Shown in pieces: positions 8,894-20,769 of a stretch of DNA of 64,000 nt. Made by a program: the position numbers and the translations under genes. The notes beneath the pieces were generated by a model that saw nothing but the letters and a program-made list of their open reading frames with translations, made no database searches and was not told where the DNA came from. The stretch lies in sequence record PZ171033.1; one strand, given 5' to 3'. Numbering within the stretch: the first letter of the stretch is position 1; every line of letters begins with the position of its first letter. Source of the stretch: a phage.

Positions 8894-10858
8894 ATGCGTT
8901 ACATCACCTCTCAAGATACGGGTAAGTATCCTATTGCTATCCTCGGTCATCAAATCCGAAGGGAGGAGATGATTAAAACCTACCTGCTGCCTAATGACCT
9001 AAGCATGGAAGACTTCATCTTCATTGAACTTCATTCTGCCCCCGGCAAGAAGAAGACTCCTGCAAGGGAAATTAAGGAGTTCATACAGCAGGAACTGCAA
9101 CAGGTACTGGATGATGCAGAAACTCAATACATTATCTGTACTGATTCTGATTACTTCAAAATACTGACTAAAGAAGCTAAAGCAGAGGCTAACCTCGGCT
9201 ATGTTTGCGATTCAGTATGGGGTAAGCAGAAGGTTATCTATGCACCTAGCTACAGGCAAGTATTTTATGACCCACCTGTAGTGAAATCCAAGATTGCTCA
9301 GGGTATGGATGCATTACTTAACCACATACGTGGACAGTATGCTGAACCAGGTCATGGAATCATTGAATTTGAAGCCTATCCAGATACACCAGAGAAGATT
9401 AAAGCCTGGCTAGACCAGTTGCTTGAGATGAATAAGCCACTGGCTATAGACATCGAAGCATTCGGTTTAAAGCACTATAACGCCGGTATAGGGACAATTA
9501 CATTCTGTTGGAGTAAGACACAAGGCATAGCCTTTAATGTGGACTATGAGCCAATTAAGGGGGCTACTGAAGCTCCCTATGGGCGTATTAACAGGAACGA
9601 TGTTGTTCGTAACCTGTTACGTGAGTTCTTCATTAAGTACACTCAACGGCAGATGTATCACAACATTAGCTATGACGTGTACATACTTATCTATCAGTTA
9701 TTCATGGATAACCTGATTGATACGGAAGGCTTGCTGCATGGCATGGAAATCATGCTACGTAATTGGGACTGTACTAAGTTAATCACCTACCTGGCTACTA
9801 ACAGTTGTGCTGGTAATCACCTTAGTCTGAAAGAACAGGCTCAGGAATATGCTGGTAACTATGCTCAGGATGACATTAAAGACATTCGTCTTATTCCTAA
9901 TGAGCAACTGTTACGCTACAACCTCATTGATGGTTTGTGTACGTGGTACACCTACGAGAAGCACTGGGATACTCTCATTGCTGATGACCAACTGGATGTT
10001 TACAACAACATCTTTAAACCAGCCTGTGAAGACATTATTCAGATGCAGTTAACCGGTATGCCCATGAATATGGAAACCGTTAACCAAGTAGCTGAGGAGA
10101 TGGAAACTGACAGGAACCAGGCTCTGAAAACTATTCGTGAGTCTAAGCTCATGAAGAACTTCACCCTGATGCTTCGTCAGGAATGGGTAGACGATAAGAA
10201 TGCTAAGCTTAAGAAGAAGCAAGTAACATTGGCTGATTGTGACATCGAGTTTAATCCTAACTCCGGTCCACAATTGCAGAAGTTGTTATTTGACTATATT
10301 GGCTTACCGGTTCTTGGTCTTACTAAGAGCAAGCAACCTGCTACTGACGGTGACACTATTAAAGCACTGCGTACACATACGCAGAGTGAAGATGTTAAGG
10401 AACTGCTCAATGCACTTATCGACTATAAACTCGTGGATAAGATTATCACTAGTTTTATACCAGCTTTCAGGAATGCCCAACCAGGGCCGGATGGCTGGCA
10501 CTACCTATTCGGCAACCTCAATCTGGGAGGCACAGTCTCCGGTAGGCTATCGGCTTCAGAGCCAAATCTACAAACAATTCCATCCGGTTCTAAATATGCC
10601 AAGAAGATTAAGAAATGCTTCGAAGCTCCTCCTGGCTGGATATTTTGCGGTTTGGACTTCGCCTCGCTGGAAGACAGAATCTCTGCACTAACTACTAAAG
10701 ACCCTCAGAAGCTTAAGGTGTACATGGGTGTGACTGTTTATACAGTTACTATAGAAGGAGTTGACCATCATATCCGAGATGATGATACAATCGTTTATGA
10801 TGGTAAAACTTATACCGGTGAGGAGTTCTATGACGCTTTTACCTGTGGCCTTCTATGA
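8894..10858 (+). CDS. DNA polymerase family A, N-terminal part (3'-5' exonuclease + start of polymerase domain)
   Basis: Exo motifs DIEAFG and YHNISYDVY; polymerase motifs SGRLSASEPNLQTIP and LDFASLEDRI (motif A); terminates just before HNH ORF. Confidence 0.8.
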   Translation: MRYITSQDTGKYPIAILGHQIRREEMIKTYLLPNDLSMEDFIFIELHSAPGKKKTPAREIKEFIQQELQQVLDDAETQYIICTDSDYFKILTKEAKAEANLGYVCDSVWGKQKVIYAPSYRQVFYDPPVVKSKIAQGMDALLNHIRGQYAEPGHGIIEFEAYPDTPEKIKAWLDQLLEMNKPLAIDIEAFGLKHYNAGIGTITFCWSKTQGIAFNVDYEPIKGATEAPYGRINRNDVVRNLLREFFIKYTQRQMYHNISYDVYILIYQLFMDNLIDTEGLLHGMEIMLRNWDCTKLITYLATNSCAGNHLSLKEQAQEYAGNYAQDDIKDIRLIPNEQLLRYNLIDGLCTWYTYEKHWDTLIADDQLDVYNNIFKPACEDIIQMQLTGMPMNMETVNQVAEEMETDRNQALKTIRESKLMKNFTLMLRQEWVDDKNAKLKKKQVTLADCDIEFNPNSGPQLQKLLFDYIGLPVLGLTKSKQPATDGDTIKALRTHTQSEDVKELLNALIDYKLVDKIITSFIPAFRNAQPGPDGWHYLFGNLNLGGTVSGRLSASEPNLQTIPSGSKYAKKIKKCFEAPPGWIFCGLDFASLEDRISALTTKDPQKLKVYMGVTVYTVTIEGVDHHIRDDDTIVYDGKTYTGEEFYDAFTCGLL

Positions 10859-11375
10859 ACAACGGTATAAGATTTCCGATGAAGGTTTCATCTTAAATCT
10901 TGCAAACAATCAACCCCTAAAACCGACTCTCAATCCTAACGGATACCTTAAGGTTGGGTTAGCTAATGGGGATGGTACACATCACCAAGAGCTACTTCAT
11001 ATTCTGGTAGCTAAACACTTCATCCCTAATCCTTATGGCTATGAACAGGTGAACCATAAAGATGGTAATAAACTGCATTGTCATAAGGATAATCTGGAAT
11101 GGTGCTCTGCTACTCAGAATGTTGAACATGCACTTAAAACAAGGCTACGTCCTGGTTACATGTCTGCTGACGATAAAGAAAAGTATCTCTTTGAGGTGCT
11201 GGCAGGTAAGCAAGTTAAAGACATTGCTTTTGAAATAGGTAGACGTTCTGAAACTTTGCATAAGATGCTCAGAACTACTGCTGACCGACTTGGTGTTCGA
11301 AATGAGTGGGATGATGTTATGAGGAGAAATAGAAAAGATGTTGCTTTACGACAGCTTGCCAAAATCAACTCATGA
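10830..11375 (+). CDS. HNH homing endonuclease inserted within DNA polymerase gene
   Basis: HNH motif VNHKDGNKLHCHKDNLEWCSATQNVEH; strong RBS AGGAG 5 nt before ATG 10830; different frame from polymerase. Confidence 0.75.
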   Translation: MTLLPVAFYEQRYKISDEGFILNLANNQPLKPTLNPNGYLKVGLANGDGTHHQELLHILVAKHFIPNPYGYEQVNHKDGNKLHCHKDNLEWCSATQNVEHALKTRLRPGYMSADDKEKYLFEVLAGKQVKDIAFEIGRRSETLHKMLRTTADRLGVRNEWDDVMRRNRKDVALRQLAKINS

Positions 11376-12168
11376 CTTCACTGGCAAGAAAATTGACAAC
11401 GTAGTCAAAGCCGGGAGTTCATCAGGTTATGATGGGCACAGTCTTCGTGCATATGCTTACTTCGGTGAGCAGATGCCAGACATAGAAGACACGGTAGAAT
11501 CCATTAACTCCATTCAGCATAAGTACAAATCATTACGTAGTGACTCGAAGGCTCCAACCTTCTTGCTTACCTATGGTGGTACGTATATGGGCTTAATGAA
11601 AAACTGTGGCTTCTCTGAAGAGAAGGCTAAAACTACAGAGAAGCGTTATCACGACCTCTATGTAGTTAGTGACAGGTGGGTTCAGGCTAAGCTAGACGAA
11701 GCTGCCAAAACTGGTTATGTTACTGCCGCATTCGGTTTGAGAGTGCGTACTCCTTTACTGGCTCAGGTTTTACGTGGGACATGCAAGACTCCGTATGAAG
11801 CAGAAGCAGAAGGCAGAACTGCTGGTAATGCTTTAGGACAAAGCTGGTGTCTACTGAATAACCGTGCTGGTTCAGAATTTATGCGTAAAGTCAGAGCCAG
11901 TGAGTTCAGGTTAGATATTCGTCCTAGTATTCACATTCATGATGCTCAGTACTTCATGATTCGTGACAACATGGATACCTTACAGTTTACGAACAAGCAC
12001 TTGGTTGAAGCCGTTAACTGGCAAGATCATCCTGATATTGCCCATCCAGAAGTTGGTTTGGGTGGGGAACTATCCTTGTTCTACCCAACGTGGGCTAATG
12101 AGATTGAAATTCCAAATCACGCTACCCCAGAAGAAGTTCATCAAATAATTCAAAAGGCATTCGCATGA
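11338..12168 (+). CDS. DNA polymerase family A, C-terminal part
   Basis: GYDGHSLRAYAYFG, RSDSKAPTFLLTYGGTYMG (motif B / O-helix-like), HIHDAQYF (motif C). Confidence 0.75.
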   Translation: MLLYDSLPKSTHDFTGKKIDNVVKAGSSSGYDGHSLRAYAYFGEQMPDIEDTVESINSIQHKYKSLRSDSKAPTFLLTYGGTYMGLMKNCGFSEEKAKTTEKRYHDLYVVSDRWVQAKLDEAAKTGYVTAAFGLRVRTPLLAQVLRGTCKTPYEAEAEGRTAGNALGQSWCLLNNRAGSEFMRKVRASEFRLDIRPSIHIHDAQYFMIRDNMDTLQFTNKHLVEAVNWQDHPDIAHPEVGLGGELSLFYPTWANEIEIPNHATPEEVHQIIQKAFA

Positions 12169-12470
12169 CCAAAAGTACTAAAGAAACTGTAGTCAGAAAA
12201 TATCATTGGATGGTAGCAGCACAGGTAGTATTCCAACTTCCTAAAGTGGATGATGGTTCCCTGCTTACCATGAACACAATGCTGCTCACTGATGAACCTT
12301 ATGTGACCTATAAAGATTTGGCACGTGCCAATCACTCCCTGAAGATTAGTCTGGACCAACGCTTTGATACCTCGGTTGACCTGAAAGACATCGTTTATCT
12401 GTCTCTCAGCAACCTGGGTCTGATGTCTGAACCAGAGTTCCAGGCAAATATGATTCCTAAGGAGAAATAA
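12165..12470 (+). CDS. hypothetical protein
   Basis: 101 aa ORF. Confidence 0.45.
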   Translation: MTKSTKETVVRKYHWMVAAQVVFQLPKVDDGSLLTMNTMLLTDEPYVTYKDLARANHSLKISLDQRFDTSVDLKDIVYLSLSNLGLMSEPEFQANMIPKEK

Positions 12471-19242: not shown

Positions 19243-19243
19243 G

Positions 19244-19313
19244 GTCGGGGTAGCACGTAGGCATGTGCGGATGGTCGCTACTTCCCTCGCTGGTTCGAAT
19301 CCAGCCCCCGACT
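19244..19313 (+). tRNA. tRNA-like element (non-canonical anticodon arm)
   Basis: 7/7 acceptor stem GTCGGGG/CCCCGAC, D arm GCAC/GTGC, T arm GCTGG-TTCGAAT-CCAGC; anticodon arm does not pair canonically by hand. Confidence 0.35.
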
Positions 19314-19864
19314 TACTGACATCCTATCAATGAGTACATTAGGCTAACGTGCGGAGGTTTACACTGTAGCCGGTGTAGGTGGAGAAGACGGCAGGGTAGC
19401 TACCTGTGCTTAGTGTACTCTTTGATAGTTTTCGTAAGCGATTATGCGGTTTTTTAGAAACGAACCAATAACATAAATGCAAACGATGATGTTGTTCTGA
19501 TGGCGGCGTAATAGCCTGTAAGTCAGCAAGGTCTTCCGACTCCTTGTAAGCAAATTCGGCGCAGTGGCCCGCTGTGATTAATAATGGGCACACAACAGGT
19601 AAGAGCATTTAGGCTACTGAGAAATCATCCGAGGCAATCAGACCTATCTTCTGTTAAGTGCTCTTTCCGTTGTGGTGAATGCGCAGGCTGATGCGCAGTG
19701 GGACGTGGCTGACTCACGAGGATGGCTCAAGCGAATAAGCAAGCTCGACGCCGCCGAATAAGCGCCTTATGCCGGAGATCAGCACCGGCCACCACAACAA
19801 GTCCAGACGATATCTGAGTGACTATAAAAACAGATGGAGCCAGGTGGAATCCCTGGCAACTAAT

Positions 19865-20693: not shown

Positions 20694-20769
20694 TACCCGG
20701 TAGGCTTAGTGGTAAAGCCCCACTAGTAAACCAACTAGGACGCAGGTTCGAATCCTGTCCGGGTAGCCA
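20694..20769 (+). tRNA. tRNA-like gene with encoded CCA (6-nt anticodon loop)
   Basis: Acceptor TACCCGG/CCGGGTA, D arm GGCT/AGCC, T arm GCAGG-TTCGAAT-CCTGT, discriminator G + CCA; anticodon stem CTAGT/ACTAG with 6-nt loop. Confidence 0.4.

Follow-up and report, generated by a model that had tools for sequence, protein, structure and literature searches.

A mobile cassette carrying an HNH endonuclease gene very probably divides the family A DNA polymerase gene of a G7C-like coliphage into two separately translated parts

How is a DNA polymerase made from a gene that holds another gene inside it? The question is raised by positions 8894 to 12168 of phage record PZ171033.1, a stretch of 64,000 nucleotides (nt) that was analysed as a whole and is called the window here, in which the open reading frame (ORF) of an HNH endonuclease interrupts the gene of a family A DNA polymerase. 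The window belongs to a Gamaleyavirus, a G7C-like (N4-like) coliphage, as it shares 91-95% identity over the polymerase region with G7C, IME11 and their relatives, and 24.8 kb of downstream sequence matches phages such as PD38 and Bp4 at 92-93%. This study found that the polymerase is very probably made as two polypeptides, without splicing, and that the interrupting unit brings a conserved peptide extension to each of the two new ends. The interruption itself is real and no sequencing artefact, because the same architecture is found at exactly this site in 19 phage records (blastn of the insert) and, in addition to these, in more than 10 IMG/VR contigs.

The gene and its insert occupy three ORFs on the plus strand, at 8894..10858, 10830..11375 and 11338..12168, coordinates that the initial annotation had given exactly; they lie in three different frames (2, 0 and 1) and overlap by 29 nt and 38 nt. 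The first ORF encodes the N-terminal fragment of the polymerase (654 residues; Pfam DNA_pol_A, E 1.6e-23), with 95% nucleotide identity to G7C gp39 up to 10722; its residues 1-610 are homologous to N4 gp39 and G7C gp39 and comprise the 3'-5' exonuclease, the thumb and palm motif A (DFASLEDR, located from the translation at 10655..10678, plus strand). The third ORF encodes the C-terminal fragment (276 residues; Pfam DNA_pol_A), 91% identical in nucleotides to G7C gp39 from 11425 onwards, and bears on the plus strand motif B of the fingers (11536-11580) and palm motif C (11929-11949), so that a family A polymerase of the N4 gp39 type is recognised by Pfam on both fragments and by all three motifs. 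The uninterrupted G7C gp39 has 859 residues and reads ...KDPQKLKVY-TDG-YDGHSLRAY... at the junction. Alignment to it shows the window collinear to 10722/10723 and again from about 11419-11428; the net insertion amounts to 695 nt and separates codon 610 from codon 611, or KVY from TDG-YDGH.

Between these boundaries of polymerase homology and the HNH ORF lie about 106-107 nt on the 5' side and about 50-52 nt on the 3' side. The initial annotation had taken them for non-coding flanks of about 25-85 nt, and had let motif A end at 10858 and motif B resume at 11338; those two positions are the ends of the ORFs, the motifs lie at the coordinates given above, and non-coding flanks do not exist, since the ORFs overlap and the flanks are coding extensions of the polymerase fragments. 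The upstream extension, ext1, adds 44 codons to the N-terminal fragment (residues 611-654, MGVTVY...CGLL, MGVTVYTVTIEGVDHHIRDDDTIVYDGKTYTGEEFYDAFTCGLL; 10724..10855, plus strand), is absent from uninterrupted polymerases and ends at the TGA at 10856-10858. The downstream extension, ext2, adds about 27-30 codons to the start of the C-terminal fragment (MLLYDSL...AGSSSG, MLLYDSLPKSTHDFTGKKIDNVVKAGSSSG; 11338..11427, plus strand); its codons 1-12 overlap the 3' end of the HNH gene, and its last three codons (11419-11427, SSG) correspond to the native TDG. The HNH gene, at 10830..11375 on the plus strand and 181 residues long from its ATG, has a ribosome-binding site of its own and a different frame, as had been annotated: its Shine-Dalgarno sequence GAGGAG (10820..10825, plus strand) stands 4 nt upstream of the ATG, within the ext1 codons for G-E-E. 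A second Shine-Dalgarno sequence GAGGAG (11322..11327, plus strand) stands 10 nt before the ATG of the C-terminal fragment, within the HNH codons for M-R-R.

Based on this layout, we propose that the 695-nt cassette between codons 610 and 611 turns the polymerase gene into a compact three-gene unit. The upstream polymerase fragment would be translated 44 codons into the cassette, through ext1, and then stop; the endonuclease gene would be started from its own ribosome-binding site within the end of ext1; and the second ribosome-binding site and ATG, placed within the last endonuclease codons, would start the C-terminal fragment with its extra ext2 residues. Two polypeptides would therefore result from the stop after ext1 and the separate start of the C-terminal fragment, namely an N-chain of about 75 kDa with the exonuclease, the thumb and motif A, and a C-chain of about 31 kDa with motifs B and C, and neither RNA nor protein splicing would be involved.

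The proposal requires the flanks of the HNH gene to be read as protein, and their substitution patterns were compared among eight diverse copies in the polymerase frame, taking for ext1 the part outside the HNH overlap. Pairwise differences at the three codon positions were 0.22/0.24/0.49 in ext1 and about 0.2/0.07-0.14/0.53 in the adjoining exons, and in the HNH ORF they were 0.30/0.19/0.57; the ratio of nonsynonymous to synonymous change (dN/dS, NG86) was 0.21 for ext1, 0.50 for the non-overlapping part of ext2 and 0.07-0.10 for the polymerase exons. The ext1 protein pattern xG.xVY.V.I.G..HHIRDD.TI.YDGK.YTGEEFY is kept across polymerases that are only about 45% identical, and the stop that ends ext1 falls at the same distance from YDGH in all nine copies examined. 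Because the first residue of ext1 varies (M, Q, T, L, I, S, A or E), ext1 continues the polymerase and is no small ORF of its own. An initial homologue search with motif A plus ext1 returned fragments of at most 147 residues only, and the position at which ext1 ends was read instead from an exhaustive phmmer search with the same query, which places it at the extreme C-terminus of proteins of 620-690 residues in dozens of 50%-identity clusters. Judged by these comparisons of sequence, ext1 is evidently translated and under selection.

The start of the C-terminal fragment is conserved as well. In all 11 compared copies the start codon keeps the same position (ATG, or GTG in L017), and a purine-rich run resembling a Shine-Dalgarno sequence (AGGAG, AAGGAG or similar) precedes it by about 10 nt, while the HNH residues encoded over these signals vary (MRRNRKDV, MKENRRNA or MKENRRRA, also MRG and MRE, and D, N or R). 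This pattern indicates that the C-terminal fragment has an independent translation start, the signals of which are kept against the grain of the overlapping HNH gene.

Split polymerase genes without any endonuclease gene point in the same direction. The IMG/VR locus L106 is broken at the site of the window and has both ext1 and ext2; its N-terminal fragment of 641 residues ends with TGA, and the ATG of a C-terminal fragment of 277 residues (MQEFEDLETSTITIDKNDAFFIKKAGKTEG-YDGH...), which starts at the same Met as ext2 in the window, follows 17 nt later. This split is no intron, because its spacer is 17 nt. A second split site lies about 25 residues downstream, after ...YDGH.LRA..YF...MPDI (site 3 hereafter, the site of the window being site 2), and there the N-terminal fragments carry the tail CYKA.VG...IYFH..E.IEY.G..MTG.ELY, which is homologous to the ext1 of site 2 (98.4% probability, E 8e-15, in the profile-profile comparison by hhalign), and the C-terminal fragments start with an ext2 of fixed length (ML.I....I..V..VS.SEH[ND]) that aligns with the ext2 of the window. 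The halves at this site are separated in IMG/VR in four ways, by nothing, by an HNH gene about 30% identical to that of the window, by 0.7 kb or by about 2 kb, and neither of the two last spacers holds a detectable relative of the HNH gene of the window; in L051 the junction reads TAA-GGAG-ACCGT-ATG, with a 10-nt spacer. The second site is common in environmental N4-like phages (IMG/VR loci L021-L062; proteins P0127, P0140, P0143 and others), and a tblastn search with the site-3 tail gave no clear example among the isolated phages of the collection searched. A further state is represented by P0179 (947 residues) and P0207, contiguous polymerases that hold at site 2, in frame and without an endonuclease, an insert of 78-79 residues made of an ext1-like part, a linker of about 30-40 residues and an ext2-like part; they could represent either an ancestral accessory domain or a re-fused split.

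The most familiar explanation of such an insertion is a group I intron with a homing endonuclease ORF, the mRNA being spliced and one full-length polymerase translated. It is the reading assumed in the Pollock genome note, which terms the endonuclease intron-encoded, in the joined coding sequences (CDS) of the AlfredRasser and Pylas records, and by Fouts et al. (2013), who proposed introns for similar splits in Vibrio N4-like phages; the annotations disagree with one another, as SP5M and Pollock are given two polymerase CDS and an HNH CDS, and in the BASEL paper the intron boundaries were set by comparative genomics. The resemblance of the endonuclease to I-HmuI, itself encoded in an intron, lends it some plausibility, and sister phages do have a genuine group I intron with an HNH ORF elsewhere in this gene, inserted at codon ~559 (site 1), 157 nt upstream of site 2. 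That neighbour serves as a positive control: Rfam Intron_gpI (RF00028) finds it in PhAPEC5 (38 bits, E 3e-6) and in L009, where the alignment covers a core of P3, P4-P6, P7, P8 and P9 with a 480-nt ORF within a loop, whereas the same search found no group I core at E<=10 in positions 10000-12200 of the window, nor, with E<=1, any at site 2 in 12 related loci that bear the split. Counting all 13 related loci searched at permissive thresholds, none gave a hit at this site. Since L009 carries both elements, the two insertions behave differently within one gene. Merely 106 + 52 nt of the insert lie outside the HNH ORF, and they show codon periodicity in the polymerase frames in place of compensatory changes; for the 5' flank, RNAalifold draws one weak hairpin at -6.6 kcal/mol, in which 1 of 11 pairs is compensatory and the covariation term, being positive, is slightly unfavourable. 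An intron also fits poorly with the conserved start codon and Shine-Dalgarno sequence of the second fragment, and with homologous splits whose halves are separated by 10-17 nt, or by about 2 kb without a detectable HNH relative. We consider the intron improbable, and the view of the initial annotation that the polymerase is split into two polypeptides and not interrupted by a group I intron is supported by the codon-constrained flanks, the conserved starts, the missing core and the endonuclease-free splits, that is, on grounds other than the non-coding flanks on which it had been argued.

Joining at the protein level was weighed next to this. An intein in the usual sense had been excluded by the initial annotation, and rightly so, because the HNH ORF is out of frame and behind a stop, and there are neither intein termini nor Hint homology. 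A subtler version regards ext1 and ext2 as the two halves of a split intein that has degenerated, and has the fragments joined by protein trans-splicing; the layout does look like one, with peptides at both fragment ends at the break and an endonuclease gene between them, and at site 3 the first residue of ext1 is often Cys, while S-E-H-N closes ext2. Those Cys...HN termini resemble the ends of inteins, yet as far as the sequences tell they come without a +1 nucleophile, without Hint homology and without sufficient length. In the window, ext1 starts with Met (variable in relatives), ext2 ends with Gly and the +1 residue is Tyr, so no nucleophile is available; at the second site the +1 residue is Val; and ext1 plus ext2 amount to about 65-75 residues, about half of the smallest inteins. 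Neither extension matched a Hint or intein family, or a Pfam family of any kind, at E<=10, and the ext1 profile found no intein among PDB sequences, its best matches (E 0.11) being unrelated proteins. This makes trans-splicing very unlikely. The site-3 loci, for example L051 and L039, often show the Cys start of ext1 and an ext2 ending in S-E-H-N/D just before the polymerase resumes, the next residue being Val.

Scarcely more credit can be given to the idea that the polymerase gene is a pseudogene while another polymerase replicates the phage, or that ribosomes cross the cassette, by two programmed +1 frameshifts or by hopping, and so yield a single chain. The ORFs lie in frames 2, 0 and 1, and two +1 shifts could in principle link them, but no slippery or hop signals are conserved, and the read-through chain would carry a whole endonuclease within the fingers domain. 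A pseudogene is hard to reconcile with the strong purifying selection on both halves near the junction (dN/dS 0.07-0.10), with 91-95% identity to the intact G7C gp39 and intact motifs A, B and C, and with the retention of the split state across many divergent lineages.

Several points weigh against two unspliced polypeptides held together by their extensions. By eye, the sequence offers an in-frame U...G pair of splice sites, one after U10725 and the other after G11417, although pairs of this kind are easily found by chance; the Rfam group I model misses some introns; and the Pollock note and the joined CDS in GenBank favour splicing, each of them being comparative annotation and not experiment. 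The literature yielded no experiment on the splicing or on the proteins of the cassette. The constraint on ext2 is weak (dN/dS 0.5), the case for a role of ext1 and ext2 in assembly consists of their conservation and a single-chain model, and P0179 and P0207 permit another origin, in which the pair may be an accessory domain of long standing that does no more than tolerate splitting.

The model in question is an AlphaFold2 prediction of P0179, which reached a mean predicted local distance difference test (pLDDT) score of 94 with an alignment of 85 rows and 34 without alignment. As a whole it matches Pol I structures only in Foldseek, namely Klenow, Bst and G20c Pol I. The ext1-like part is predicted as four strands (619-646) followed by a helix (647-654), at a pLDDT of about 85; the linker (655-680) falls to 54-72, and the ext2-like part forms a strand (684-690) at about 83. 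By these confidences, the break point of the split phages coincides with the low-confidence loop, within a small beta-rich insert that sits at the base of the fingers. We infer that ext1 and ext2 fold together and assist the association of the fragments: the two chains would reassemble non-covalently, with the predicted four beta-strands and helix of ext1 and the beta-strand of ext2 forming one small domain that keeps the halves joined. It is possible that the pair was an old accessory domain with a loop tolerant of the endonuclease, which was then dragged along in homing, and it is possible as well that the pair and the cassette arose together, the pair serving as an adaptor.

The inserted ORF has the features of a free-standing homing endonuclease. 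Its NUMOD4 (23.8 bits, cut-off 23.4) and HNH_3 (26.1 bits, cut-off 24.8) matches exceed the Pfam gathering scores, its nearest solved relative is I-HmuI (PDB 1U3E; phmmer, E 8e-10 over residues 6-103), and its codon-position pattern agrees with this assignment. By analogy with the I-HmuI family, the endonuclease would, in a mixed infection, nick or cut cassette-free alleles at KVY-TDG-YDGH, the putative target being the cassette-free G7C-type allele AAGGTGTATACCGATGGCTATGATGG, and recombinational repair after the cut would copy the cassette to the recipient in full, ext1 and ext2 included.

The distribution of the cassette is that of a mobile element. The same three-ORF layout at the same site is found in a dozen Enquatrovirus N4-species phages (AlfredRasser, PMBT57, VEc25, Jura, SPSP and BEU phages), whose insert is 98-99% identical to that of the window, in Pollock (90%), in the Gamaleyaviruses SP5M and PD205 (about 75-77%) and in Pylas (70%); divergent IMG/VR copies reach down to 44-62% identity in the endonuclease and about 44-54% in the polymerase, and most Gamaleyaviruses are without the element. 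In the pairwise mismatch map against AlfredRasser, the tract 10715..11429 (plus strand) has 3 mismatches (99.6% identity), while the polymerase exons of that phage are 55-85% identical to the window per 100-nt bin, and the boundaries are sharp, the nearest flanking mismatches standing at 10714 and 11430. SP5M and PD205 show the opposite pattern, their exons being 90-100% and their cassette about 75% identical to those of the window. The sharp boundaries imply that the mobile unit consists of ext1, the endonuclease gene and ext2, without a detectable co-conversion tract; that the flanks are part of this unit had escaped the initial annotation. The combination of Gamaleyavirus exons and an Enquatrovirus-type cassette is unique to the window within the phage collection searched, and the donor and recipient lineages both infect E. 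coli. These identity patterns indicate that the cassette is mobile and was recently transferred laterally across phage genera, and the 99.6% identical Enquatrovirus/Gamaleyavirus cassette offers a clean, datable example of homing between genera with E. coli as the host in common. Next to the cassette, the downstream exon is mosaic at 11494-11800, with 84-93% identity to SP5M and 95-97% to PD205 in the same bins, which suggests additional recombination there.

Among known systems, the cassette is nearest to the nrdA-a / mobE / nrdA-b arrangement of Aeromonas phage Aeh1, reportedly described as 'genes in pieces' by Friedrich et al. in PNAS in 2007. As in Aeh1, a free-standing HNH-family endonuclease gene lies within an essential gene, here very probably without splicing, and several features of a gene in pieces are found in the window and its relatives: an endonuclease with its own signals between the halves, a conserved stop and start, a patchy distribution and lateral movement. 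The separately translated fragments of Aeh1 NrdA reportedly reassemble into an active enzyme, whereas here reassembly is inferred only; a summary of the Aeh1 arrangement is given in PMC7344957. The host gene also differs, being here that of a family A DNA polymerase, and the cassette adds conserved extensions of 44 and about 27 residues to both new ends, which travel with the endonuclease and persist after its loss. To our knowledge, no such extensions have been described for NrdA.

The group I intron in the polymerase gene of Bacillus phage SPO1 (I-HmuI, 1U3E) and the codon ~559 intron of PhAPEC5 and PhAPEC7 resemble the cassette in placing an I-HmuI-like NUMOD4/HNH endonuclease in a conserved region of a family A polymerase gene and in their patchy distribution among close relatives, but the cassette has no ribozyme core; as its flanks are translated, gene function would be rescued at the protein level, in contrast to the RNA level in introns. 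With naturally split inteins, such as the cyanobacterial DnaE, it shares an essential replication enzyme encoded as two genes with complementary peptides at the break; unlike them, it has no splicing residues or Hint homology and is about half their size, and the association is presumably non-covalent. Replicative polymerases made of two polypeptides are known from family B, in T4-like gp43A/gp43B (Aeh1 group) and in the archaeal split PolB. These concern another polymerase family and another break point, whereas the split described here is borne by a recently mobile cassette.

The kind of element is known, a free-standing homing endonuclease that makes a gene in pieces, and the insertion itself is already present, inconsistently annotated, in database relatives. 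What appear new are the evidence that it is not an intron, the conserved and portable ext1/ext2 pair that occurs at two sites and is kept after endonuclease loss, and the breadth of two-subunit family A polymerases in Schitoviridae. Tentatively, and with rather less than even confidence, we suggest that this amounts to a third way, next to introns and inteins, for a homing endonuclease to reside inside an essential gene, in which it brings its own non-covalent adaptor pair; the pair, found at two positions about 25 residues apart in Schitoviridae polymerases, would persist after endonuclease loss, giving rise to permanent two-subunit polymerases in many environmental N4-like phages.

For annotation, the records that describe this insertion in N4-like phages as an 'intron-encoded HNH' gene or as a joined CDS do so without a supporting RNA signature, a recurrent annotation that is corrected here, and protein sets built on the joined CDS include polymerases that the phages probably never make. 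Family A replicative polymerases of two subunits appear common in Schitoviridae, whether or not the endonuclease gene is present. If it is true that ext1 and ext2 mediate reassembly, they would amount to a natural split-protein tag, small in size and mobile together with a selfish gene, and possibly a part for protein engineering; such an adaptor role would also bear on the means by which homing endonucleases enter essential genes and leave the host alive.

Some further observations concern the endonuclease and the neighbouring intron. The HNH motif (NHKDGN...DNLEW...QNVEH; 11049-11129, plus strand) is intact in the window copy, and in the region of the Pollock (L006) endonuclease equivalent to window 11090-11130 the sequence is DNLELCSATQNVKH as against DNLEWCSATQNVEH in the window; by this comparison, the substitutions in its HNH motif may reflect decay of the Pollock copy. 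The site-1 intron spans 2175-2877 in L003 (PhAPEC5) and about 2022-2675 in L009, and its counterpart in the window, at about 10566, is uninterrupted. The Intron_gpI matches at site 1 (33-38 bits, E about 3e-6) fall short of the gathering score, which is 50, and the HNH ORF (177 residues in L009) sits in a peripheral loop. In L009-L012, the site-1 intron and the site-2 cassette occur together, so that three pieces of DNA encode the polymerase. Elsewhere in the window, ARAGORN predicts a tRNA-Ala(cgc) at 19243-19314 and an odd tRNA with a two-base anticodon call at 20694-20769.

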